A DNA stretch of 48,864 nucleotides, the filler included, from Catajapyx aquilonaris (Eukaryota): NCBI GenBank assembly GCA_000934665.2. It is 2 parts of 2 records of this genome, joined end to end, with 100 filler letters (N's around TTAATTAATTAA, not from the genome) between each part and the next. Parts side by side here need not be neighbours in the genome. Positions count along the whole stretch, not along the records: positions 1 to 24,367 come from JYFJ02005532.1; 1 more part is not named here. One strand, given 5' to 3'. Position 1 is the stretch's first letter, and every line of letters begins with the position of its first letter. Below are positions 2,223 through 38,444 of the stretch, piece by piece. The notes under the pieces are model-generated. The model worked only from the letters and a program-made list of their open reading frames with translations, ran no database searches and was not told the origin of the DNA. The position numbers and the translations under genes are program-made.

Positions 2223-3017
2223 TACAAATAGTGTTGGATTACCGAATTCTTGCATTTATTATTCCAATCCCATTGGTATTGCACTTATAATCAAATGAAA
2301 TTTAAATTGCATAGTGTGTTAACCCTTCCGCTTTAATTTTACAACTGAGATTGTGCATGTGTTATTTTACGGTGGCGTCTAACTCCCCAACGTTTACAGA
2401 TTTTAAAAACATCGTCCACGGCTTCAACCAACACCCTGAAGTCAACCTGGCATGGAGTTGCAGCTATGTCAGCGTAGAGTCACCCGTCAATCTTCAGTTT
2501 ATCACGGAGGATCCAGGAGCATTTGGTCAAGATTTTCATGAGACGGGATGAATCACTGCTGCTGTTTCATGCTCAAATCAGGTATGTCTATGGCACAAAC
2601 ATGTTTATTCTTGTCTGGCACATTGGTTGAGTAACAGTTGGTGTGCATTGGCCCAACCCAGCCCTCCCGTAACTCACACTCTAGCCTTTTGGGGATGGCC
2701 GTGTTCTTAACAAGTTCTCTGCCGCCAAGATTTGGCATTCCAGTCAATCTCTGTACCAAATCATATTCATGCGAACTACTTCTGAACCGTACTGAACCTC
2801 CCAATTCCCACTCAGTGCCAGTTTGCAGATGTGTCCACCAGCCACCGAATGCCATTTGCACCGTTACAAATCGCATTTGGGCGTTAGGTGGGCTTATCTG
2901 CAGACAGGGTCCGAATGGGAATTGATGGTTTAGGTAGGCACAGTGCGGATCAAAAGTTGTCCTCCCAAATGCGATTTGGTACAGTGCGCCACATCTGAGG
3001 ATTCAGGGACTTGTTAA

Positions 3018-3517
3018 CCCTCGGACGGTGACGTGGGCACTTTTTTTGACCAACGACACTTTTTTTGCTATAACTTGGAAAATTTAGGACATTCGAGATT
3101 CATCTTTGAGAACATTTTCGTTTGACTATTTCTGTGATGAATGGCGTTTAGTTTAAATTTTTTGAGCAAATAGCACGACCAGGGAAAAAGAAATAAGGCG
3201 GCAATGCGTAGTTGAGGCCCTACCAAGATCAGGTCTGGCGGCTCCCGGTGGCTTCCCAGGCCGCGAAGGGGTGGAATCACCTTACCCCCGGGAGTTGGGC
3301 CCGACTGATTTTCTTTCCGATTTTTTTCTGATTGCACTATTTGCTCAAAAAATGTAAACAAAGCGCTATTTGTCGTAGAAGGAATCACACTATGATTGCC
3401 TGAAAGGTGAAGCCCAAATGTGCTATATTTCGCCAGATATAACAAAAAATATGGCTTGGTCACAAAAAGTGCCCACGTCACCGGAGAGCGAACATTTCGC
3501 ACGTCACCCTCTGAGGG
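3018..3517. mobile_element. piggyBac-like MITE
   Basis: TTAA-CCCTCGGACGGTGACGTG ... CACGTCACCCTCTGAGGG-CTAA (right TSD mutated), plus a subterminal inverted repeat GTGACGTGGGCACTTTTT. Confidence 0.7.
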
Positions 3518-4011
3518 CTAAGCGCATACAAAGGCGGCTCTCCTTACAACACTGTGCATCGAAGATTCACTGAGATTTACTCCGACCTGGGCGCCACCAT
3601 GTTGGAAATTGCATGTGATTTGGGGGGAGAGAGAGAGAGAGTTTTCAAGCAATGCTGTAAACCTGCAACATCCCTGCGACTTCGCAGGTAAGCGGAGCGC
3701 GCAGCTTGCGCATGCAACTAGTCGCTGCAACATAGCGCCGACATTGCATGATTTGGGCTAGGCCTAATGCTACATCTTTGTTTTGTGTACACTATGTTGC
3801 GACAAACTCATCTGGAAATTGGCTGCATGACCATGGCTCGTTTTCATCTGAATGACTCATATATTTTGCTTTACAATTTCATACTGATGGCTGGTTGGAA
3901 AATTTTTGCGGGAATTTTTTGCATTCGTATTTTAGATGGAAAAGATTACTTAAAAAGTGCAGATGGTATGGTATTACAGAATGTTTGCAATAATAGTTTT
4001 AATCCCATCAG

Positions 4012-5075
4012 TACGGAAGCTCCTAGGGGCCACCCACTTTTAATTTTACACCACATATTTTCACTGATGTTTTTATTTTACCCGCAGTGTATTAACAACA
4101 ACATGTATTTTCACCGGTGTTTTTATTTTACCCGCAGTGTATTAAGAGCGGCATTAATTATTTTCACCCCCGCAGTATTTTCACCCGTTCCCACGTTTTT
4201 TTTTCCCCTCGCGCTTGTTTTTTTCTTCGTCCCCCTTTTATTTTCCGCACCACAGTTTTTATTTTACACATGTTTGAGAAACTAATGCGGGCCTCGTCGA
4301 TAGCACGATAGTGTAGTGCGGAGTGAGCGGAAAGTCGGAAGTACGAAGACAGCAGAGGTCGAGGTGCGGGAGCAGTGGACGCAGCGACCTCGGCTGGGAC
4401 AGTGGACAGTGGACACTTCGACGGCGATCGGGTGTGGTAAGTATTTGGGGCTCTGATTTGTCGGGGGACGAGTGATATATGCATCATGCCTAGTAGGTGG
4501 AATAGTGGAATGGCTTCTCTCCGACTCTGACTCGCTCACTACTACTTAGCAGTGTCCTACGAACTGGTTTGGTTGAAGAGCTCCTGCCTCCGGACGGGAG
4601 CCAGAAGCTAAGTAGTAGTGAGCGAGTCAGAGTTGGAGAGAAGCCATTCCACTATTCCACCTACTAGGTATGATGCATATATCACTCGTCCCCCGACAAA
4701 TCAGAGCCCCAAATACTTGCCACACCCGATCGCCGTCGAAGTGTCCAGTGTCCACTGTCCCAGCCGAGGTCGCTGCGTCCACTGCTCTCGCACCTCGACC
4801 TCTGCTGTCTTTGCACTTCCGACTAGGCCCGCATTAGTATCTCGAACATGTGTAAAATAAAAACTGGGGTGCAGAAAATAATAGGGGACGAAGAAAAAAA
4901 AACCACGCGGGAACGGGTGAAAATAATTAATAATGTCGCGGTTAATACACTGCGGGTAAAATAAAAACATTGGTGAAAATAAATGATGTTGTTAATACAC
5001 TGCGGGTAAAATAAAAACATCGGTGGAAATATGTGTTGTAAAATAAAAAGTGGGTGGCCCCTAGGAGCTTTCGTA
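4012..5075. mobile_element. Foldback element with TAC...GTA termini and 6-bp TSD (IS3EU-like non-autonomous)
   Basis: TACGGAAGCTCCTAGGGGCCACCCAC ... GTGGGTGGCCCCTAGGAGCTTTCGTA; CATCAG duplicated at 4006-4011 and 5076-5081; ~500-bp inverted arms with internal TTTTATTTTACCCGCAGTGTATTAA repeats. Superfamily inferred from termini and TSD only. Confidence 0.8.
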
Positions 5076-5774
5076 CATCAGTATTGACCTTCCTTACAAT
5101 TATATGAAAATTTAAATTTCATAATGTGTCAACCCTTCTGCTTTAATTTTCTGACTAAGATCATGCATTTGTTATCTTATCGCAGCCTCTAAGTCATCCT
5201 CTTGTTGACAGATTATTTAGCCACCAAAAACCAGTTTAGAAATACAGTAATTGAAGGCAAAGATGAGACCTTTCACTGGTTTACATGCTAGTGACAACAG
5301 CAGATCCTGGCTGGTCTTTAGGCTCTCTTTAGTTTTGGGAAATTTTGCTCAAGGCTGTATTTTGTAGCCCACTGTGGAGGTCCACTATTTTTAGCAACTG
5401 CTATTTTCTATGACCTGAGAATAATTTGGTACTTGGATTGAGTTGCAAAAAGTAATCACCAAAATAACTACTACAGCAATATTGGTGATAACTAAAAGCA
5501 ACCCTGATCCATGGAATACCTTGCACACTTGTATGACTTATCATTTTACCATCTTGTTTTGCTGGAACTTAACCTTGTCAGAGTGGGGAATGAAACCAGG
5601 GTGGATAGGATTATTTGAATGGGGATGAACTGGGCCTTGATGGTGTATACAAGAACCCAAGCTTACTCAGAAGTTGTGAACGTAATTTTTGAACTGTAAT
5701 GCCAGTGAATCAAGTGATGAGACAGAGCCCAATGCATTTTGAGGTCATGGCGTGGAACTTTTTAAATGGTGTTA

Positions 5775-5961
5775 AGGTGCGAAAACATGTGAGTGATTTG
5801 ATCACCGATGCATCGCTGAGTAACCCGAGTAACGAATATTGTTTGAGGTGAAAGCAACGCTCGATTTTCGCCTCAACCAATACAGGTTGCTCGGGTTACT
5901 CAGCGATGCACCGCTTGGCAATGACATCGTGAGATCACATCGCTCACATGTTAACGCACCT
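5775..5961. mobile_element. Harbinger-like MITE
   Basis: AGGTGCG...CGCACCT ends, internal inverted GCATCGCTGAGTAACCCGAG, TTA TSD. Confidence 0.65.
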
Positions 5962-6058
5962 TTAAATGGAGTGATCTAGGCTTCAAGGGGTATAATTTGG
6001 GGAAATTGTCCACAATTTTGTACACCTTCATGCCCATTTAGCGCAGGGTCCTTTTTAA

Positions 6059-6528
6059 CCCTTATCTACGTAGGTGGGCGAAACACCTTTAACTACGTAG
6101 GTGGAGCCTGAGAGGCTCCAACGGTATATTTAAATTTCTGCTTATCAACTAAATTGCTATATTGGACTTTTCACATACAGAAAGTGCAGTTCAGATCATT
6201 AGGCTTACGAAAACGTAAAAATCACACGCTGAGTCAGCATATTCCGACAGGGAAAATTTTTAAATTAAAAGGTTACATCATGCTTGAGCCGCTCAGGCTT
6301 CACCTACATAGGTAGAGCCTGAGCGGTTCCAGGAGGGACCTGTTCCTCGTTACGAATTTTTTAAAACCAAACAATATAGATTTAAAAAAAATTTATTTCC
6401 TTTCCATGCTTAGGAAGGTTTTTCTGACAAAGTCACGGAAGGACGGGGGAAAATAAAATTCAATGAAAAAGTTACATGCGTGTAAATAGTGCTTGGAGCC
6501 TCTCAGGCTCCACCTACGTAGTTAAGGG
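6059..6528. mobile_element. piggyBac-like MITE
   Basis: TTAA-CCCTTATCTACGTAGGTGG ... CCACCTACGTAGTTAAGGG-TTAA. Confidence 0.8.
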
Positions 6529-6700
6529 TTAATTCCCTTTATAGGACGAACAGGCAATAGGATGTTTGCACCTGGAATTCTACTCAGCGTTAACGGCTCA
6601 TATGTTGAGAGGAAGTGAGGCCGGTTTCATAATGCAACTTTCTATGGTGTTGCGCTGTATTGCTGTCCAAGCAAAGCCCTGCACGCCAAATCTCATTATA

Positions 6701-6837
6701 CAGTGGAGCCTTGATTATCCGAAACAGTGGGAGACTGGGGGTGTTCGGATAACTGATTTTTTTGGATAACCGAAAAACTGTATATTTTGTATCACAATCA
6801 CGTCTTTAAAATACATATACCTTACATAAAGAAGTAT

Positions 6838-6900
<63 letters not shown>

Positions 6901-7437
6901 TATCCGGGTAGTGCTTGGCCTTCCCGGCATGTAGCACGGACCTTTATTTGTACGATGTACATATTTGGAACCTAATTATTGAAGTGCCCGGGCCCACGGG
7001 CAGGATGACAGGAGGGGATGTGCAAGGTGCAGTGCAATGTCTTAAACGTGACAATTTTTAGTGAACTCCCCCGGGTGGTTTAGTCTGTTGGAAATACCAC
7101 CCGAGAAGAAGCCAGAGGTGACCCAATGAACTCTGCACGAGATGAAGGGGGTGTCCCCGGGCTGGGATCGAACCCGGGACCTTAACATCCGTGGGCACAT
7201 ACGTTACCGCAGCACCACTCCGCCTCCCCGTTTACATAAAGAAGTATACAGTACACTACATACATTAAAGTAAGCCCACAGCTTAGGAAAATTAGTCAAA
7301 TACTATACATTATTTTCTTTGCTTCAGAGCTGAGACTCGTTTTTTTGGGCTCTAAATCTCGTGGATTTGCCGACTCGAACGCTTTCGGTTACCCGAGGTT
7401 TCAGTTGATTATTGTTTGGATAATCGAGGCTCCACTG
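6701..7437. mobile_element. pogo/Tigger-like MITE interrupted by a SINE
   Basis: TA-CAGTGGAGCCTTGATTATCC ... GGATAATCGAGGCTCCACTG-TA. Confidence 0.75.
6839..7229 (-). mobile_element. tRNA-derived SINE, copy A
   Basis: Minus strand begins GGGGAGGCGGAGTGGTGCTGCGG (A box), then GGTTCGATCCC (B box); (TTA/TAA)n tail at 6839-6901; 17-bp TSD TTACATAAAGAAGTATA (6822-6838, 7232-7248); related copies at 25004-25379 and 42114-42417. Confidence 0.85.
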
Positions 7438-10400
7438 TACATATATTGTGAACATTGTAACCGCGCTGACTACTACAGGGTGTATCAAAAGTTGGTACCT
7501 ATTTTTATTTCCAAATAACTTTCCAAACAGTACACCTATGGAAGTGAAACGTGATTCAAAATGTGCTGGAATTCATGACAAGTTTAGTTTATTTACCCCG
7601 GTAGGCTTAACGCTTTTACATGGGGGAGCTCATCTGAATATTTACATTAATTAACCCAAATAAGACAGGTGGTTTTTCGTGTTTTTGCAAGTATCTGCAA
7701 AAAAATCCCTTTCGTTGGGACTTGGGGGACGAGACTTGAAAACCCTAGTGAATAAGATCGTATAGTGTCCAGGCTTGATCCTGAGGCCATCTATGTGACC
7801 CTCCTCTCATGCGTACACAGTGGAAACACTCATATGCAGAACAAGGTAGCGCAGAGTGGTATGTTTTGCAGCTACTCCCAATTTTTTGTCACTCTGCCTG
7901 CTTGACAAAAAATTATCGGTATGTAACCTTGGCATCGCTGAACCAAGCAGTATATAAGCACATAGCATGAAATACAGCACAGGCCTGCCAAGCGAGCTGT
8001 GTTGATAAACACACAACCCCTCATGAACGTAAACATCACAGCAGCTCGTAAACAGCGCCGGGGCATGCGCCCTGCATCAGGATGGAGGGCGGGCAGGAGT
8101 TGCGCAGAAGCCCGCCAGCTGCTAATTGGCATTTACGAACATTATTTATTTTAAAACTATTGAATGATCTTTTGCACTAATTTTAGGGTGGAATCTCTTG
8201 AGGTTTGCGGGCAACTATGTATGCCAAAATTTTGCCGATCAAGGTCGGATTTTGTTTCTTTTTTTGAAGTTTTTATTTTCAGCGGCCGCAAAAAGATGAT
8301 TTCATTCAAGTTCATCTGGTTAATCCGGTTTATTTATGCACGATTTTGTAGTCCAAAACCCGCGATTTTTAACGCGAGAAAAAATTTAAAAAGCCACACA
8401 GAAACCACGTTACATAGTGGGAAAACGCTGTAGTTTCGCCAGCAGAATTTTTTAAGAGCCACCGCATCAGCATATGATACGCCCGTTTTGTTAGAGTTAA
8501 AGATGGTAGATATTTGGAAAAACTGGTATGCAAGTCATTCACTAGATTTTCAGTGTGGTGGTGTAAGACCTGAACATGCGGTGTTGATGTACATTGTTTG
8601 CCTGTGACGGGTGCATAGTTCCTGCATCAAAGAGAGACAGTTCTGGTTGTAACGGCCACTTGCATTGTATTTAGAAGATTTGCAATAATTGAGTGTTTAT
8701 TGCGTAATGGCTTGGCTATAGACTTAATATTAATTTTGCCCATTTTCTCCTCGACAGGTTGTGCAAGTATGTGCTGCCAAAGCCCCAGTCGATGCTGCCA
8801 GTATCCCAGCAAGCTTACCAACTTATGCTTGGGTTGGGCTGACCACTGCACTGGATGATGGAAGGTGGTTCCAGAACTGACATTGCCATGTGTCAACATA
8901 GAGAAGCAATGATCTTCATCCTATGGCCAAGCCGTCTTCTAGAGTTCCACCTGAATGCAATAACATATTGATATACCTAACCTGCCTTGCTGCAGTCCCG
9001 TTCCCTTCTACAAGCAGATTCCTGCCAGGTTACGATGCAATACCATTCCACAGTCCTTGCTAACGACAAATGCTTGACAAAAAAGGAGAGAGATGCTGAG
9101 AGCAACTAACGTTTTGTAGATGCAATGGATTTGGTCTATTTCTTGCCAAATGTTCCAAACATCTGCCCATAGCATGTTGCTTTAGGCATGGTAGCCATGC
9201 TGAACTGGTAGTACTTGCCACTTTGAGTTCTTGTGTTTCCGACATGTCAGAAAGACACTTAAAATCAGTATTATCACAGTTGACTTGAGCCAAAAAAAAA
9301 AAGAGAGAGAGAGAGAGAGAAAGAGAGATCCACACTGGAGGACTGAGGGGAAGGACTTGGGAAGGGCAACATGAACATAAGAGGCCTTTGGGACACTGGG
9401 TTGGGATGGGCATCAATCCCCCAACCATCAAGAGATCCCTTGCGGGATGCTGGCGTGGACAACGTAAGGGTAGCAGTTGGGAAGAAGACCCAGGGGCCTC
9501 ATCCACGCCTTCTCCTCGTCCAATACTAGATGCAACAGACCGTGTTGCTTGCCTGGAAGGCTCAAGTCTTCTCATGTACCGTTACATAACTAGATGTGAT
9601 CAAAGTTGGCAAGCACATGAGACAAGCTATGGCAGTATCTCGACCTGGATCAGATGTCACCTTTGCCTACATGTTGGGTGTGAAATTTCTGCACCTGTGA
9701 TTATTTTATAATGTAAGCATGGGTTAAGAACAACCCACATTCCACATGCCAAATGTTGGTTCAAGAGTTGTCACACCTTTGTATATTCTAGTACCCAGAC
9801 AGCCACACACCGTTAAGAGAAAGGTGGTGACAACATCATGTAGAGCCCAAATTTTGATTCCACCTTTTATTGGTTATGGTGGCATGTTTCAAAAACAGGC
9901 ATGGTCATGAACCAAAGGTTTGTCCATCTACTGAAAGTTGTTGGCTTGGGTTTAAAAAAATTTCCAAGTTACTAAACAGGTGATCATGTAGTGGTCAAAT
10001 TTTGAAGATCTGATCATGGGTTGGATACATGATTGCCAACAGGGGGACCATCATGTGGCTGTCATTGATATGTAGGCTACAACTTTTCCTCCCCACATAA
10101 GCTATTTGGCTGACGTATGTCGAGAGAGAGTTAATATTTTACCTTGGAGTTTTACCATTGTTGTGGTAATTGTAAAAGTTTTCATGGGACTGAATAAGCA
10201 AACAATTTTATGATGGAAATATGTTACACAATAGCCTATGAACCATAATAATCTCAACGGGTACAACTTGGAGGTTACGGAGGCCTAAGTTGACCTGGCC
10301 TGAATGTGGTCCTCGGAAAGTGATGATCCGTCTTTGTGGGTATGAGTTTCCTCCTGCTCTGTGGATGACCCTCTGGGCCCTTATCGCTCCGATGTCTTAA

Positions 10401-10458
10401 CTGGAGCTTCAGCTTAATCACAAGTTTAAGATACTTTGGTGACCCTTTACAGATGCTC

Positions 10459-10604
10459 GTGTTGGCCCTGAAAAGGGCCGTTTGTTATGTTGGTCCTGAA
10501 AAGGACCGGTTGTTTGATGCGCCGCTGCTGCTGCTGCTGCTGAGCTCGTAGGCCGCGTCTGCTGTGGAGCTCGGAGTCGGGCGTTCCTCGTTGCAGGCTG
10601 AAGT
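10459..10604 (-). ncRNA. Putative ~145-nt Pol II non-coding RNA ending in two histone-type 3' stem-loops
   Basis: Minus strand: TATA-like motif (10630-10637), TCACTT initiator-like motif about 30 nt downstream, no AUG, then GGTCCTTTTCAGGACC (10507-10492) and GGCCCTTTTCAGGGCC (10479-10464), each with an AC-rich 5' flank and AACA 3' flank. Transcription is inferred, not shown. Confidence 0.45.
10464..10507 (-). terminator. Tandem histone mRNA 3'-end stem-loop motifs (SLBP-binding consensus)
   Basis: Two 6-bp-stem/UUUC-loop hairpins matching the metazoan histone stem-loop consensus, spaced 28 nt apart; purine-rich AAAGGG lies ~15 nt after the distal stem (10448-10443). Confidence 0.75.
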
Positions 10605-10612
10605 GAAGTGGC

Positions 10613-10649
10613 CCGCGCCTTGGTGCTGCTTTTTATAGCCAAGGCGCGG
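10613..10649 (-). promoter_or_regulatory. TATA box bracketed by an 11-bp inverted repeat
   Basis: CCGCGCCTTGG (10613-10623) and CCAAGGCGCGG (10639-10649) flank the minus-strand CTATAAAAAGCAGCA. Confidence 0.5.
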
Positions 10650-10994
10650 ACCTTGTGGAGGTCGATCCAGAGTTGGCCGACTCTGGCCTTGAAGGTTTTT
10701 GGAGGGAAAAAGAGAGCAGGGGACAGGATAGGTTTGGAGGCCGATGCGAGTCAGGGGACATTTGCCCGTGAGGTGAAGCCGGCAGGGGATGGCGTGCCTG
10801 CCGGCTCACCATAATACAATGAAACGAAGTGCCTGCATGGTTATTATTATTCGCTACAGAGTTCCAGACAAACACTGGCTGATAATGAGGTATGAATTAT
10901 TATGTACAATTTATTGTCAACTGGACTAGGAACTATAAGTGCCGCCAAGAGCTATTAATTATTTGTATGTTTGGGTGAAAAAAATCCCCTTCCA

Positions 10995-11920
10995 TTCTTC
11001 AATCCACATCGGCATTACAAAATCTACACCTTCGTGCAGTGTATCCATATAGCGCCAAGGCTGCCTTACACGTGGCACATTGTCGTCGTCTTCAGAACTC
11101 GATTCTCGGCCCTCGATGCTGGTCAGATCGTCGTCAGAACTAGTATCTTGGTCGCCGTGGTCACCAAGGTCTGTGGCAAGGTCGTCGTTTAAATTATTAT
11201 CTGCGTGATGATTGGCCAGTCCCTCATCAATGTGTTGGTTTAAATTCTGGGGGAAAGGAGAGGGTGATTCATCATAAACCCATAATCCTTTGTCACACAC
11301 GTACCTGGCTCCAATGTGCAAGTCCTTCATCATGTAAAAAAAACTCCCACGTCATCACCGGTGCGTACAAAATAACCGTCCACAGACATCTAAATCCAAA
11401 TGTATGGATGCAGGGCCGGTCAATCCAAATGAAAGATATCGAATAAAATGTAACGGGAAGTTGCCAGACTATCTGTGTGGTGAGCCACCCCCGAATGTTG
11501 GCCGGGGCAAGCCCCGTCGGTGTCTAAAGAAAAGAAAAAAAAGGGGGAGAATTGAAAAGTTTCTTCCATTTTTGTAAATTTTTTTTGATCAACCTAAACC
11601 CATCTGTACAGAAAGCCGAGCCAGCATATGGTTCCGAACATCCAAATTCCTCCAACCCCGGTTCCAGCCAGTGCATATAGAAGTGGCAGAGCCATGGTCA
11701 TTTTGATAATTCCTGCAAGTCTGGGATTCCCTCTAACTGCGCCGGTCATCCTGTGTGTTTTGACCCTTTTCTTCAGTGCCTGCGTGAAGTGGAACCAACA
11801 TCCACACACCCTGGCCTCGGGGAAGCCTTCCGCTGCCGCCCTCTGCAGCGCCTTTTCGTAGTCTGTCAGAATTACGTCAGGAGTTCAACCAAATCGTGCG
11901 CTAATATGTTCCAAGACTCT
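10995..11920 (-). pseudogene. Decayed MULE (Mutator-like) transposase with C-terminal Cys-rich (RING-like) remnant
   Basis: Minus-strand TPDVILTDYEKALQRAAAEGFPEARVCGCWFHFTQALKKR...MALPLL, then SVDGYFVRTGDDVG (decayed RTNN.E motif), an acidic linker and CATCK...CRFCNADV; stops and frameshifts present. Confidence 0.8.
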
Positions 11921-12738
11921 TCTCTATGCGGCAGTGGTGGTCATTAAAAGTACAGCTTTGTTGTAAACATTTATTGGCTCGTAGTACTCTCTGATACAAC
12001 TGCTACTTAATCTTTTTGTGCTTGCAGCATAGTTTAAAAAAGTTACAATTCATGTTGGCGCTCTTGCTCCCTTTCTTCCTTAACTCGAGCATGTGCTTGC
12101 TCTGTCATACGTTTATCATGGTTAGAACTTCCTATACAGAATTGAAGTATGTACGTTTTCTTTTCCGGCTTCGAGCCTCCTCCGCTGGAGAGGTTGGGGG
12201 TGTTGCTTGATCCTTCCACTCCTCTGCAAAGCGATCAAATAAGCATTGACTCCAAAGTAGCATGTAAGTACTGAATTGTTCACTAGGCGGCTCCGTCTTC
12301 CTCATCCACGTCGTCTGGCATAGCCTTTTCATTATTGCTGGTGTGATCTGAAATATTCGCATTTAGTTATTACTAGCAGGTTACCCGGCGTGTATGTGGT
12401 GGTAGGCCTGTATCCATGGGCAATGGAAAGGTAACATTAGTATTATTTCTGCTTCAATACGGTACCTTCCTTTTGGTTTTGGTCTATCAAGACTACGATC
12501 CATCTACAAACACTCTGTACACTTCCACCTCAATGTAGCCATGGCTGTTACTGTTGCCAAATGTTGTGGAATTTGCATGTGTTGTAGCATCGTACCCGAG
12601 TTGAAATGTAGAAAACCGGTGCTGTTTTCATTAATGATGTGTTGGTCAATATCAGGACTTGCTTAGTGTGTAAATGTATTTTTGTTTTACTTAAGGTGCA
12701 CTGGTTTGGTCGTCCGACACGTTACCGCATATTGGGTA

Positions 12739-13030
12739 TGAATTTACCACAAGTGCTTCGCCTTGCAGAATTTCCTCGCGACTATCTGTGTTTTTTTTTT
12801 TCATGTTTTTACCTTGGGGGCCCGTTTCACTTTACTGAGAATTCTCCCAAGAATGCAAGGGTGAGTCAAGTGGATAACAAGTGGGTGCCTTCATCTCTGC
12901 GACGGGGTGAATGGCGAAGACAATACTTATGTCCTGCCACCTGACGTACGAAGAAGCTGCAGATTACGGGACAGTTTAAGATAATATCGTTGCTATAACT
13001 CCCTTTGTTGACATAGTCCAGGGCTGCCTA
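12739..13030 (+). repeat. ~290-bp dispersed direct repeat (second copy 23706-24006)
   Basis: GAATTTACC.CAAGTGCTTCGCCTTGCA ... GTCCAGGGCTGCCTA is shared with 23706-24006; a further related piece lies at 14168-14230 (compare 23616-23702). Confidence 0.8.
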
Positions 13031-14647
13031 ATGGCAAAATATTTCAGTTCGAGCAGAGATGCCGCCATTTTCCTTAATATTTTAAAGACTTGGTAACTTT
13101 TGTTGCCAGATCATGAGAATGCAAGGTGATAGAACGTGTCACTTGCTGCTGGCTCGGGCCAATGAATGAGCGGTGTTTGTAAAAATGCGGCTACAAGTTG
13201 TAGTGAAATTTATATGCAGGGGATTTGTCTGCAGAAAATCTGACTCTAAAGGTGATATGATGGAATCCGAGGAAGGAATTAATTATTAGAGACCTTCGCT
13301 AAAACTCGGATGGATTTTCGGCTGGAGGGTTGCTTCTATCCTTTTGTCGGCCAGCAACGCGAGTGACGGTTGTATCAACATTAAAACGCCCTGCTACAAA
13401 CATGTTGAAACGCCCAAGGAGGAAAGGTCATTAAGATGTAGCTGCTTCATCGAAGGATTTTATTATCAAAAATTATAATTTAAAAGCACAAAAATTTACC
13501 TTGGCCATCAGAATCAACGGGAAATAAATCCTCACCAGACGACCTGGCCGTTAAAATCGGTGCTGACGACATCACTAATAACGCTACCCCCTCAATCCGC
13601 GCAGGATGCCGGCTTCGAAGGATAGGAGATTCATAATCCACACAAGCCTCTTCTTCGGACATCACTACACCCTTTTGGCCCCCTCCTCCTTCTACCGACA
13701 CGTGCATCCGTTGCTCAACCGTGTTTACAATATCCGTGCCAACTCCATGAATCGGGAGAGGGCAAAATCTACATCAACCCTCGATGCACAAATAGCAAAC
13801 ATTCGCGGAAAATTATCGCATAATCGGAATTATAAAAACGAACAGTGGATTAGAAAAGGTCCCTCTGAATATCAATAAATGGAAACATTGCAATAGGTTG
13901 CGCACTCACCAGCGCTCACTATTCAACTACAGCAAGGCTGGCTTTCACATACCTGTCTCCTCTGGAAGCAGAAGCAGAAATAGGATTACAGGTTGCAACA
14001 GAAGTTTCTGACCTAGTCAACATTATACGTGGAAATTGTCAGTTTTTTAAAGTCGATTTACTAGCCTACTTCCTTCAATACAAAGGATTGGTGCTTCAGT
14101 ATGCTAGCTTTTTATAATGGTTTGATCAGCCTCTGTCTTGTGTTTGGAACGTACCCAACATTTTATACAGGCTCTTCTTCACTCTCCAGATAGAGCGCGA
14201 GCTCGCGACGAAGCAAGTTTTTTGTAAGGGTGAGTCAACATAATATGTGGAAATTCTCAGTTTTTTAAAGTCGATTTACTAGAGAGCTGTTTGACTCACA
14301 ATAGGATTGGAGTAATTAAGTTTTACTTGGCTATAGGTTCCACCCTCGGAAGTGTGACGACAGGGTAGCGGCTCCATCTCGTGAGGGTTGATTTCGGTCG
14401 CGATGTTGGACTCTGAGAAGACGATGTTGAGATTGGCAGATTCACTTAATATAGCATCCGGTTTTTTCCCCGTTTTATTACTCAGCTAATACAACAAGTG
14501 GATTATGCGATATTTGTCAAGTACATGATCCAATATAGGGCGACCACCTTTGCTTAAGCAGGACCTGGGCCAGGACTCGCGCTGGCAGCGCTCACAACCT
14601 GATTGCGCCCTCCTTACGCACTCACCATAACGTCGATAACGGTTTTC

Positions 14648-18019: not shown

Positions 18020-18533
18020 GATCCTTACGTGTACACAACCTCTCTGTCCGGTCCATTCAAGCTGAAGGGTGCCTCGTCGGAGAAGAGCACTTGTTTCCAC
18101 TGTTCCTCAGTCCAGTTGCGGTGCATTTGGCCCACCTCAGGCGACTTCGGCGCATTGCCGCAGTCAGCAACGGCTTCTTTGGCCGGTGTGCTGGAAGCCC
18201 CATGTTGATTGGGCGCTGTCTCACGGTGCTGGTGCCCAGTTTGATGCTGGTTTGGTTGAAAAAGTCTGAAGTGATGTCCCGGGAAGATTTCCTCCTATTT
18301 CCCAAACAGATTCTCTTCAAAATCCTGTCTTCTTTAGATGTTTCCTTCTTTTTCCTTCCACGACCAGGCACCCTCTCCACTGAACCACTTTCTTGGAACC
18401 GTTGCAGCAACCGGCACACAGAACTTTGGTTGCACTCCACCCTAGAAGCAATCTTTTTCCCACTGAAACCTTCTTTGTGCAAGGCAATAATTATTCCCTT
18501 CTTTCTGGGCGAAAATTCCTCCGTTTTCCCCAT
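18020..18533 (-). pseudogene. Tc1-like transposase, N-terminal part
   Basis: MGKTEEFSPRKKGIIIALHKEG...GRGRKKKETSKEDRILKR...KKPLLTAAMRRSRLRWAK, then frameshifted WKQVLFSDEAPF. Confidence 0.85.
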
Positions 18534-20299
18534 GTTGCTGATGGTAGTGGCTGGGGCAACAGGTGCACACCGGCAGACAATGCTATGACTATGACCCACT
18601 ACCACTTTAAAAATTTACCGCGACCGATACCTGCTTAAAATGATCCTCATAATCCAAGGAATAGATGCTATCACTCACTCCGAGTTGGAAATAAGTGGGA
18701 AATTCAACTCCAATTTCATTAGCTCTCACTCTCTAGTTGTCGGAAGGTTTCTAGCTTCCCCAGCTCTATGTTAATCTCTGCATTGCTCCATTGAGGGTTG
18801 GCTGCCACAATCTTTGACCTTGCATCACAGTGTACCTCACAGCGCGCTCAACTTGACTACAAATGTACACCACATCTGCAGGTGGCACAATCACATCACC
18901 TCTATTTTTTTACATAATTATATCAGGCAAGAATGGTAGCAAGTTCCACGAAACAGCTACCCTGCAGTCAGGGCATGTAAGTTTTGGTTCTGAACTAGAA
19001 TCATTTTGGTTGCATGGACCATCTCACCATTGTTATTGCGAGAATCTTTGTTCACTGGATCTCGCTTTCTAGTAGAATTTCTTGCTTGCTCAGTGTGCTC
19101 GAGAGGGGCATCTTCTGGTGACAGAGTCGGGTCGATGACCTCAGGGGATTAATGGAAGTTGCCTTTCTCTGCGTTGTCCATTACAAATTGTTCGGCATGC
19201 TCGTTCTTAACCCTAAACTTGCTACCTGCTATTAGGCATGGTCACTGCCTGACCCCTGGTGGAAAATATGCATTTGGGAGGGCCATTTGTGTACACTGCC
19301 TGACACATTAGCAGTCCCTAAATGTTAACCTGAAGTAGAGATATACGAGTAAATGCTATGGCGTAGGTGCAGATACAACCTTGTAACTCTCACATTGTTA
19401 GAATGGGAAAGAATTAGTCGTATGTGAGACATTTAGTTTATTACACTATAATAATGCTCTGAATAACATGACATACCTCACGTACTACACACAACTATCC
19501 TTTGTGATTGCAGTACTAAAAATAATCTTGCATAATAGTGATATTTCATCGACATTATTTATTTAATGGTAGGTTCAGTCGACTTTAAAGTTATTCTGTG
19601 GAGCAGGTGGAGAAAAGAGTAAAATGTCACACAAGTTAAGAGGTTAACAAGTTCTGGTTTATTTATGTTTTCCGAATGAACCAAATAACCACATACACTT
19701 TAAGCCCTTTGGCCAAACTTTCTCAGGACCGTGTCAAAATATGAAATCGTTCTTGAGCTGGTACTTACAGTATTGATAGCCTGGAGAGAGAGAATGCCAC
19801 CGTCTTGTTGAGTGTTGCTTGGGGAGTGCCCTAGTGGATCTCTGCCGCCTAAGGTTCCCAATACCGTCTCTTTTATACTTAATGTCCACGTGTTAACTAC
19901 GTTGTGACGGTTTCCAATGACGCACACAGATGCCTATGGACGTACATTGGAACACCTGACACCACCGATATCCACTCGATTGGATTCGGTTACTTTTAAT
20001 GTGCTAAAATGCGTCAAGAGTTGTTCTACATCAGATGACGCATTTCGCATTTTACCACGATACGGTTTGAATTGAAGGGCAAGGTCATATACCGTATGAC
20101 GTCCAAGAGCGTGATTAAAAGTTACGTAACATGTTGCAAAATGAACTACGCAATGCTCTGAAAATTGTCGCTACTCTCACTCAAACTCAGCAACACTGCT
20201 GAAATATTTTACTAAGGATCGTGCTTACTCAGCAATGGTGACAGATAATACAAAATCAGAATATGCTTCATGACAATCATGATTATTATTAAATGACGC

Positions 20300-28114: not shown

Positions 28115-30303
28115 TCACACGCAGTGCTTGAGGTGACTAATGTGTGACGTATATTTGTCGTCGAGATATTTCAAAAAATTGGTCACTCGTTGCCCCTTCT
28201 TTTCATCACATCTATAATTCTCTCTCTCGTCTTCTAATTTCTTCAGGTAAGGCTGGAAATACATTGTATTAAATAATAATTGTTAGCAGTAGCTACAGGT
28301 TGCACCATAACCACTATGTCAATGTTAAATTAAGTATATGTCAAAAAAGTTATCAACAAATGTATACTTGCGTTACAGTAAAAGCCATATTTAAGACGTG
28401 TCATGCTTGCTTATTGTATCATTTCTTTAGGTCTCCTACACTGCTAACTACCAGTTTTTAAGGGAAAGTTGTGATGCATTGATTTATGGATGGATATACC
28501 TTCAGTTGGTCAGCATGACGTTGAAACATCAACATTCCGCCGACAAAATTCCAGAAGTCGTAGTTTGGCCACAACACCTTGTCAAATGCAATGACGCTGT
28601 ATGCACACTGGAACAAGAAGCTGATTATGCGTAAATTAGCTAATAGCGCAATAATGAGCACCAAGCTTCACTGAAAAATGAACGTGTATATACTGCACGT
28701 TTCAAATTGAACAAGAATTACCTGCCAGAGCATGAAGTTGGAGAGCCTCATTTCTCCAGAGGTTCTGACGATCATGTCAACTGGAGGTAAGTCCGAAGTT
28801 TGAAGACACTGCTCCATCAGTGCCTCTGACACGTCATCTGGTTCGATCAGACCTTTCCTCACTCCTTCCTTCAGCTGGTTTATGGCGTAGGTTATGTCAT
28901 CTCGGCCTAAGAAAGAAAGATTATTATTATTATTATCTATTCCCTGCATAAAGTAGTATTCTGAATTCTGACTAATCCTTAAAAATACTAAGGGAATTTG
29001 GATATTATATGATCGCGTTAATTGCTCACCAGCATAAGGCATGGCCACAGTGAAGACATGCTTATTACAATGACGAGTTCTCTCCATCAGCTCCCCAGCC
29101 AAAACTCGTAGCTTCTGTGGAAATAATTCCAATCGTCCAATAACCCGAAATTGGATTCCATTCTTGATCATGAAATCTCTGTAAAGGTGAACAATACCCC
29201 AAAATTGTACTTGTGCAAACACCCAAAGGGAACACACCAGTTGACCAAAATTTAGTGACACGCACTACTCATCGACCTATGCAGGAAGCCAAATTATTAT
29301 ACCTCTGCGTTGCGCGGTTGCGTAAGTACAGAGTGTCAAATGTTCCCATTTTCGCGCCTTTTTGATACGTTCGCTGTCACTTGGAGGCCCATATCTGGTA
29401 GAAGGTCATGTCAAATATAACATTTGATATGTGCATTGGAAGCGTATTAGTTTTACGCTCTATGAGATGGTCATACTCAAAATTGAAAAATCCAAAAATT
29501 CAAAATCAAAGATGGCGCCCAAATCATTGATGTTGATATTGGTCATGAATCGAACCCTACGATTTCTTTTGAATGGCACTTAAAATGACAAGGGCAATGT
29601 TTACTTCACATTTCCGAAAAATCTGGAGAACCCTTTTTCGATATTTGCCGACAATAATAGCCGACATGCTAAAAAGATAAGTCTCAACAGTAGCCTACAC
29701 CGTGTAGAGTCCGTTTTCAACTCTTCCTACGCCAACGCAACAAGCTTACTCACATCTCTTCCAAATATTGCGTCATGGCATCTTCAAACACCTTAATCAG
29801 TCCTTCAACTTCCTCTTGAGCTCTTCCAAAATTATCCAGGCTGAATGCAAAAGTTGTCACAGCGTAGACACCTAAGAATGCGCACCATCCTACCACTTTT
29901 TTCATTATCACACCACTGGAATTACAGTAGAAATAAGCAACTATGTGTAACGTATTTAGTATAGATTTCCAGTCACATTATTTTCCATGTTGTAACTCAC
30001 CCATCTGTGTGGCCTTGCATGATCGGAAGTCCTTTGGACTTGGCGTATCGTCTGTTTCCATCCATGATGTACCCAACATGACGAGGTACACTTCCTTGCT
30101 TTATTATGTCCAAGACATAGCGCTGCAGCCACGAGGGGTTGTAATACGACTTAGGTCGGTAGTCCTAAAATCATGTGTAGTGTAGGTAAGACATAATTAT
30201 GTACATTACAATACATGATGGAAATGCTTTGGACCATCTGGCACATTAGTTATGAACAATGAGTCGGAAACTATCAGTAAAGTATAAGGTGTCAGCTTAC
30301 CAT
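28115..30303 (-). CDS. DHDDS: cis-prenyltransferase, dehydrodolichyl diphosphate synthase-like (302 aa, 7 coding exons)
   Basis: Exons (minus): 30301-30303 (ATG), 30001-30164, 29754-29915, 29030-29178, 28722-28906, 28500-28607, 28115-28252; all GT-AG and phase-compatible, 909 nt in total. Motifs [76 protein letters not shown]-like run ~30385-30397; AATAAA 28000-27995. May be a paralog rather than the ortholog. Confidence 0.9.
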
Positions 30304-35366: not shown

Positions 35367-35438
35367 GCGATGGTGGTGTAGTGGTCAGCATAGTTGCCTT
35401 CCAAGCAGTTGGTCCGGGTTCGATTCCCGGCCATCGCA
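35367..35438 (+). tRNA. trnG-TCC: tRNA-Gly (anticodon TCC)
   Basis: 72-nt cloverleaf GCGATGG...CCATCGC-A; anticodon loop CTTCCAA; T-loop GTTCGATTC; oligo-T terminator at ~35444-35450. Confidence 0.93.
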
Positions 35439-35687
35439 CTCTCTTTTTTTCAATGTTAAAAAAATATTAAGGCAGGATTGTGACAGATGGTCCAGATGGT
35501 CCGCGGGTGAACCGAAATCACGATTTCATGTTTTTATCAAGAATTACCTCATGGTCCATCCAAGATGGTAGCGTAAACAACTTAATTGGTATAGAAGTAT
35601 CAGAAAATTACTCTACATCACGTAGGCCTACATGTCAATATTTACACGGAAGACCAATAGTCGGATTATATTTTATAAAGAACATTT

Positions 35688-37320: not shown

Positions 37321-37392
37321 GCGATGGTGGTGTAGTGGTCAGCATAGTTGCCTTCCAAGCAGTTGATCCGGGTTCGATTCCCGGCCATCGCA
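37321..37392 (+). tRNA. trnG-TCC: tRNA-Gly (anticodon TCC)
   Basis: Identical to 35367-35438 except one variable-loop base (TGAT versus TGGT); followed by an oligo-T terminator. Confidence 0.94.
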
Positions 37393-38444
37393 CTCTCTTT
37401 TTTTAAATCTTATAAAAATCTTTCGGCAGAATTTAGAGAGAGAAGTCAAACCGTGGATTATGGTAGTTCATGTATACTACGTATTTACGTTTTGAAAGGG
37501 TCTAACAACTAACAAATCTCCCATGCGGAAACATTTGAACAAGACTGATCTAATTCATGGCGATTTACTGGGTTGCAATAATTAAATTTCAGACATTTCA
37601 GTGCGTCCGAGAATTCACAGGACAAATAGGGTTACAGAATTAGGTTCTCTCCTTGACATGACAGACTCTCACGAACTTGACAAGATATCAGCATACGTAT
37701 CTAGTATGTTGCGTTTGTTACAAAGAGTGATCCTGAACCGATCCTGTCACGATTTCAGATTTTTTTATCAGTAACTTCATCATGGTATATCCACAATATA
37801 AGAATAAACCAATACTTAGCATTTAGTGTACCGGAATATCTCGTTCAGGTCAATGCCTACACAAACGAACAGGTACTCGCTTCGGCGGTACACACACGAA
37901 TGAAACGGTAGTCGGATTAAATTTTTGAAGGACATTTCGGACCTATTTCTATGATATGGCTCAGTCTAATTCATATAATTTTAACCAATAATAATAATTT
38001 ATTGTCGACATCGTACGTGTTAACGTCCAGTAGGCCTACTACCATCAGTATAATATTATACTTGGTCAGTTGGTCTCTCAGGACAGATGCTACCCACAGA
38101 ACATTTCCGAATGACACGTCCTCCGGATAACCCACTGCGATGACTGAGGGCGATAAAAAACTCGCCAAAATGCAAAGTTGTCTTGCCTTGCGGATTGTAA
38201 TTTCTGCTGAAGCAATACCTTGTGACATTAGGATAGTTCGTATCGTGCTGCATACCAGTCAAGTGCCAGTGTATACGGCTGCAACCATGTACTACTATAG
38301 GACTTCAATGCACCAATAGTTCTGCAACTCTGAGCAGCAATTTGGCAAGAAAACAGTATAAAAGCTGCTTACTCTACAAGGATCAGTATCAGTCGCTCAA
38401 GCGCACTTCTTCAGGCAAGAGCAACCATCAAGAATCGCATCATC

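Follow-up and report, generated by a model that had tools for sequence, protein, structure and literature searches.

A 379-bp repeat from Catajapyx aquilonaris appears, from its sequence, to be a mobile element that carries histone-type expression signals and no gene. On the minus strand of the window (the whole 48.9-kb stretch of DNA analyzed here), this unit, which we call the cassette, runs from a candidate promoter through an ATG-free leader to two histone-type 3′ stem-loops in tandem and a purine-rich element, and it is bounded by short imperfect inverted repeats and a 4-bp duplication (Table 1). The same tandem signal follows transposase genes in DNA from elsewhere. The reading that we favor, and to which we give about an even chance of being right, is that the cassette is a non-autonomous mobile element descended from a gene-bearing parent, of which it has kept the promoter, the leader and the histone-type 3′ end.

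An initial annotation of this DNA had proposed much of that layout: an initiator on the minus strand, roughly 100 nt free of AUG and including (CAG)6, a consensus pair of histone stem-loops set 28 nt apart, AAAGGG at the place of a histone downstream element, and no histone coding sequence ahead of them. Each of these was recovered in our analysis. The annotation had also set the TATA box inside an 11-bp inverted repeat; the box does sit within a repeat, but the arms are 14 nt long. The candidate +1 positions are the A residues at 10604 and 10609; counted from the TATA box's first T they lie at 33 and 28 nt, and transcription would start at one or the other. Between the TATA box and the end of the unit, which comes ~8 nt beyond AAAGGG, there is no ATG (10637 to 10435, 203 nt of the minus strand). 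Because 321 of 9634 stretches of the same length in the window (3.3%) are likewise free of ATG, this trait is only mildly unusual and weak if taken alone. All three frames are open up to stem-loop 1, with no stop codon before it, and a protein search with a 110-aa pseudo-ORF across the cassette returned no matches. We also scanned stop-to-stop ORFs of at least 70 aa against Pfam, covering the 134 of the window's 195 that lie in positions 1-30182, and found no histone family among them.

Table 1. Features of the cassette and its surroundings, in positions of the window
Feature	Position	Strand	Basis
Whole repeat unit, 379 bp	10435..10813	-	Contig depth and unitig breaks; ends set by TIR/TSD test
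5′ terminal inverted repeat (TIR), 11 nt, fits TWTGGTGASCC	10803..10813	-	9/11 match to other end
3′ terminal inverted repeat, fits TWTGGTGASCC on + strand	10435..10445	+	TIR/TSD test
Target-site duplication (TSD), upstream copy, 4 bp	10814..10817	.	Same 4-mer abuts each end
Target-site duplication, downstream copy, 4 bp	10431..10434	.	Same 4-mer abuts each end
14-nt inverted repeat, arms 10639-10652 and 10610-10623	10610..10652	-	93% (13/14) complementary, 15 nt apart
TATA box, between inverted-repeat arms	10637-10630	-	Sequence
Initiator-like TCACTTCAG	10606-10598	-	Sequence; 28-33 nt downstream of TATA box
ATG-free, T-poor leader, 97 nt with 8 T	10508..10604	-	Sequence
25-nt tandem duplication within leader	10527-10576	-	Repeat search
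(CAG)6 within leader	10542-10525	-	Sequence
Histone-type stem-loop 1: 6-bp stem, UUUC loop	10507-10492	-	Pattern match; Rfam Histone3 18.6 bits
Histone-type stem-loop 2	10479-10464	-	Pattern match; Rfam Histone3 30.0 bits including 3′ flank
Purine-rich AAAGGG, candidate histone downstream element	10448-10443	-	15 nt past stem of stem-loop 2
MULE transposase-domain remnant, outside unit	11597..11884	-	Pfam PF10551, 31.7 bits, cut-off 27.6

Both stem-loops are exact matches to the pattern GGYYCTTTTMAGRRCC and have a 6-bp stem, a 4-nt U-rich loop and consensus flanks. The pattern was found twice where 0.04 matches were expected, and none of 100 shuffles contained two or more; the pair is beyond chance. 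The two hairpins are also the only matches to the Rfam Histone3 model (RF00032) in the window, with stem-loop 2 and the downstream element scoring together at an E value of 2.7e-6 in a local search. Because both scores lie below the gathering score of 34 bits, a default Rfam scan omits them, and such a scan of the window returned two tRNA genes only. Stem-loop 1 is predicted to form a hairpin in both the MFE and the centroid fold. Between the 28-nt units of the two stem-loops there are four differences, and a compensatory change of one stem pair from U-A to C-G accounts for two of them; this leaves stem pairing preserved, and we count it in favor of probable selection on the hairpin. The resulting stems, GGUCCU and GGCCCU, are presumably of the arthropod (Drosophila) type. 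A scan for bacterial-type promoters and terminators, irrelevant to a eukaryote, found the hairpins again on the other strand only and was set aside.

Compared with the replication-dependent histone 3′ ends of animals, the cassette shares the 6-bp stem with its GG base, the UUUC loop, the A-rich 5′ flank, the ACA-type 3′ flank and the purine-rich element 15 nt past the stem. It departs from animal histone genes in having no histone coding sequence, in the tandem duplication of the signal, in matches that fall below the Rfam cut-off, and in the placement of the signal inside a repeated unit with inverted ends.

To define this unit, we placed Logan contigs of four public runs of the same organism on positions 8000-14000; three of the runs (X1-X3) come from one sample and the fourth (X5) from a different study. 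In X1, summed contig depth reached 1356 over 10412-10612 and 1892 over 10613-10813, against ~21-39 in the flanks (10010-10411 and 11015-11617), and X2 and X3 gave the same pattern. The unit's summed depth is thus ~60-90 times that of its single-copy flanks, a ratio that is not the same as a copy number. Independent of depth, position 10666 is covered by 14-17 distinct contigs per run. The initial annotation had left open that the cassette was single-copy; it is instead repeated. Few well-supported differences among copies are seen in these contigs over 10469-10628, and most of the depth in other copies carries a T insertion at 10629. Two apparent joints, 9689 to 11568 and 10461 to 10628, were discarded because their sides, of 22 and 28 letters, are shorter than 30.

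The ends of the unit were set in two ways. Single-copy unitigs stop at 10468 and start again at 10784, ~30 nt inside each unit end, and these breaks lie one k-mer inside a repeat spanning ~10439-10813. We then searched within 8 nt either side of the limits so derived and found an 11-nt imperfect terminal inverted repeat, immediately bordered on each outer side by the same 4-mer; exact sharing with other copies, as judged by the unitig breaks, has its lower limit 4 nt inside the end fixed by this test. Of 1966 random placements in the window, one had a duplication of at least 4 bp together with a repeat matching at 9/11 or better, and 2.6% had a repeat of that quality by itself; both features rest on one copy of the unit, because no other copy could be read base by base. 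The 379-bp unit so bounded looks like an insertion in its own right. One X5 contig spans 10267-10593 with a single mismatch; therefore, the same insertion is present in the second study's sample. Within the window, blastn of 9500-12500 gave the self match only, with no second copy or related repeat; matches to the terminal-repeat motif were at chance level, and we found no autonomous partner with the same ends. Directly upstream of the unit, 10814-11014 has about 10-fold single-copy depth (214 vs 21 in X1), a rise that might reflect a separate low-copy repeat or a longer form of the unit itself.

The initial annotation had called the cassette transposon-borne and had placed it ~330 nt downstream of a MULE transposase remnant. 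The first description holds in that the unit is itself a high-depth repeat with inverted ends and a target duplication; its attachment to the neighboring MULE does not. The only MULE piece with Pfam support is farther upstream, ~780 nt from the unit and ~960 nt from the TATA box. The end of a nearer ORF (10962-11351) is 325 nt from the TATA box on the upstream side; searches gave this ORF neither a Pfam family, at E values up to 1, nor a homologue among longer proteins, leaving its identity as a MULE unsupported. A cassette that was cargo or the 3′ end of this MULE, captured in the manner of a Pack-MULE, could well be found near the remnant and in the same orientation, as it is here. Yet MULEs make 8-10-bp target duplications and enclose their cargo in long terminal repeats, whereas this unit has its own 11-nt ends and a 4-bp duplication, and the MULE domain is outside it. 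The remnant's depth ranges from about single-copy to 4-fold, its flanks are single-copy, and the ORF in between shows no MULE similarity. Given the 4-bp duplication and the single-copy DNA between unit and remnant, we regard capture by the MULE as extremely improbable.

Several other identities were rejected on the structure of the unit. There is no GT before stem-loop 1, as a spliced-leader RNA gene would need; the TC...CTRR termini of a Helitron are absent; and the unit has neither the tRNA-like head nor the Rfam match of a SINE. Tc1/mariner elements duplicate TA on insertion, and the 4-mer found here does not fit that superfamily.

Depth also bears on where the histone-type signals came from. 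The initial annotation had raised the possibility of a histone gene whose coding sequence was deleted, and promoter and 3′ flank of such a gene, amplified as ordinary DNA, would explain the histone-type character of both stem-loops and downstream element, as well as a TATA/initiator layout that suits histone genes. Depth is roughly even over the promoter half and the stem-loop half, though, so the amplified form is the gene-less unit, which holds nearly all the depth over both halves. Because this gene-less unit is what is amplified, a simple local relic of a histone gene is unlikely; the defined inverted ends and target duplication and the lack of any histone family among the 134 scanned ORFs likewise stand against a relic, and we judge it very improbable. 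An ultimate origin of the signals in a histone gene is possible.

A minor set of contigs departs from the gene-less form. In each of X1-X3, two contigs exit the cassette at 10599, just past the initiator, and the reverse complement of the sequence beyond has an ATG ~20 nt on; further contigs diverge at 10640 and 10709. That the same promoter leads into ATG-bearing sequence would suit a histone relic too, and the contigs diverging at 10599 hint at longer, gene-bearing relatives that share the promoter.

If the cassette is a non-autonomous element, its history could have run as follows. The TATA box and initiator would be a Pol II promoter, with a duplicated histone-type processing signal ~100 nt on. 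The messenger of a gene-bearing parent would have ended by the SLBP/U7 histone pathway and not by polyadenylation; internal deletion of that parent would have produced the gene-less unit; and the unit would have inserted on its own as a 379-bp dispersed repeat, leaving the 11-nt imperfect inverted repeats and the 4-bp duplication. If transcribed, it would yield a capped, non-polyadenylated RNA of ~117 nt when cut after stem-loop 1 or ~145 nt when cut after stem-loop 2, and such an RNA would be expected to bind SLBP. That the unit is transcribed, where its RNA would begin, that SLBP and U7 would process it, and that there was a parent gene and of what kind, we infer here.

Non-autonomous transposons and MITEs can arise by internal deletion, as Ds from Ac and the MITEs derived from Tc1/mariner elements did. 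The cassette resembles MITEs in being short, non-coding and apparently high-copy, in having terminal inverted repeats with a target duplication, and in keeping the end regions of its presumed parent. It differs from them in that it retains a complete histone-type unit from promoter to terminator, that no parent was found, and that its target duplication, at 4 bp, matches that of no common superfamily seen nearby. Two observations count against the reading of a deletion derivative: the lack of a stop codon before stem-loop 1 is unlike a simple remnant of a coding 3′ end, and the duplication, which misfits both Tc1/mariner (TA) and MULE (8-10 bp) insertion, fits LTR elements equally well.

This last point makes a solo LTR the main rival. 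The upstream part with the TATA box would be a U3 of ~205 nt, the stretch from the start through the stem-loops would be R, and the segment with the downstream element would be a short U5, the genomic RNA being ended by histone-type cleavage in place of polyadenylation. LTRs typically have short terminal inverted repeats and a target duplication of 4 bp (4-6 bp); the cassette has both, and its order of promoter, start, 3′ signal and short tail is theirs as well, with ~145 nt to the cleavage site and ~25 nt from there to the end fitting U3-R-U5. High depth between unique flanks is also what solo LTRs show. By contrast, the minus-strand termini are TA... and ...AA and not TG...CA, the 3′ signal is of histone type instead of poly(A), no internal retroelement sequence was seen, and neither a primer-binding-site nor a polypurine-like sequence lies beside this copy. 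No reverse transcriptase or integrase family was found among the 134 of 195 window ORFs scanned (1-30182). Further, with such a processing signal in its 5′ LTR, 117-145 nt from the cap, the genomic RNA would presumably be truncated unless the signal were suppressed. We consider a solo LTR unlikely, though it is the alternative that we take most seriously.

Tandem stem-loops of the same type exist in other mobile elements. We scanned viral, prokaryote and metagenome collections for two histone stem-loops 8-20 nt apart. The pattern was absent from the viral contigs and from 596 billion bases of prokaryote genomes, which served as a control. Metagenome contigs held at least 120 loci (listed as L001-L120), and 117 of the 120 listed form one repeat cluster. 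Because ORFs for SRCR and EF-1-beta occur on the same contigs, we take the listed loci to be animal DNA. By tblastn, 82 of the 120 carry a Tc1/mariner-like transposase remnant, and in 79 the transposase C-terminus shares the strand of the stem-loops, with a gap of 5-175 nt (median 30) between its end and stem-loop 1. Of 12 loci tested, six pass the Rfam Histone3 cut-off.

We also took the longest ORF ending within 400 nt before the pair, which gave 42 ORFs from the 62 listed loci that match a stricter pattern. Translated upstream ORFs show the typical C-terminal motifs of Tc1/mariner transposases, and all PDB matches of the L075 ORF are Tc1/mariner transposases (Sleeping Beauty at E 1.3e-4, followed by SETMAR and Mos1). 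In Pfam, two of the 42 match P2RX7_C and one has a weak match to DDE_3. None matches a histone (0/42 among the listed matches), and this adds to the case against a histone relic. The stem-loop pair and a purine-rich element sit downstream of the transposase stop codon and ahead of the right inverted repeat (for example, L075:296-1161, L021:1699-2071, L077:358-1701 and L030:1497-2449), and short gene-poor derivatives retain the pair. These loci indicate that tandem histone-type ends lie behind transposon genes in other animals and are kept by deletion derivatives.

The cassette and the metagenome elements are alike in carrying a tandem pair with a purine-rich element inside a mobile element. 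They differ in that the metagenome elements have transposase remnants, absent from the cassette, and long arms: ~130-160 nt around the pair in L004 and L054, ~270 nt in L030, whose ends are flanked by TA, and 34 nt in L077, where arms 1276 nt apart enclose the transposase region and the stem-loops. Beyond the stem-loops themselves, none of the 120 listed loci is similar to the Catajapyx cassette, and the metagenome elements are an analogy and not relatives.

Three arrangements among the listed loci differ from the common one. In L057 (206-957) and L106 (363-641), which carry the same gene, a P2RX7_C ORF (PF20478, 28-30 bits) ends 15 nt before a tandem GGCCCU-type pair whose second stem-loop, at 34.6 bits, passes the Rfam cut-off; here the histone-type end belongs to a gene for neither a histone nor a transposase. 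On the minus strand of L014 (216-1013), a 266-aa ORF with a proline-rich repeat, a cysteine/histidine-rich C-terminus and no Pfam family ends 30 nt before a tandem histone stem-loop pair. The 643-nt L089 has four histone-type stem-loops in a row at ~32-nt spacing, an expanded array of the same signal.

The cassettes might alternatively be dispersed small non-coding RNA genes, spread by or domesticated from a mobile element, whose capped stem-loop RNAs bind or titrate SLBP. A promoter of their own with neither ORF nor ATG, the compensatory change that keeps the stem paired, the scarcity of well-supported copy differences over 10469-10628 and the dominance of the gene-less form in depth would all be expected of such genes. 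Recent transposition accounts equally well for near-identical copies, however, the terminal repeats and target duplication point to selfish spread, and no related cassette was found outside the organism in the viral or prokaryote contigs or among the metagenome matches listed. We think this reading quite improbable.

To our knowledge, the histone stem-loop pathway is confined by the textbooks to replication-dependent histone messages. The cassette suggests that jumping genes can borrow the pathway that finishes those messages. A wider proposal is that mobile elements of at least two unrelated animal lineages end their transcripts by tandem histone-type stem-loops and are thereby tied to the S-phase SLBP/U7 pathway, the two being the 379-bp cassette family in an arthropod-like genome and the Tc1/mariner-like elements in other invertebrate DNA; here, some ~100 gene-less cassettes would give rise to short capped SLBP-binding RNAs that could compete with histone messages. 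We offer this proposal tentatively, as possible but short of probable. If the signals work, transposons could be expressed in step with S phase, the time at which cut-and-paste elements increase in number; the pathway would have many non-histone clients in some animals; and genomes may contain a large pool of SLBP-binding RNAs. A unit as compact and self-contained as this one lends itself to direct tests of the idea, through mapping of 3′ ends and assays of SLBP binding.

Full-text literature searches returned no report of histone stem-loops in transposable elements and none of tandem histone stem-loops, and passages of two preprints likewise mention neither. The nearest published link that we found (Plewka et al. 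2024, PMC11417402) is the repression of HERV1/LTR12 transcription by U7 snRNA, which acts on HDE-like motifs close to CCAAT boxes. Like the cassette, it ties a repeated element to the histone 3′-end machinery. The mechanism differs in that, as described, it involves no SLBP stem-loop and no 3′-end formation (PMC11417402).

The window contains further features apart from the cassette. Other very high-depth repeats occupy 8000-8600 and 9407-9607 (~2,300-11,600 vs ~21-37 for single-copy DNA in X1-X3), and a simple-sequence tract lies at 9286-9335. On the minus strand, an ORF at 18060-18614 has Tc3-type transposase helix-turn-helix domains (PF01498, 38.7 bits); it represents what is left of a Tc1-like transposon, and no histone stem-loop lies near it. 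Two cis-prenyltransferase exons, dehydrodolichyl diphosphate synthase-like (PF01255), lie on the same strand at 28671-29264 and 29753-29977. On the plus strand, 35367-35439 and 37321-37393 are near-identical tRNA-Gly(UCC) genes, ~1.95 kb apart.
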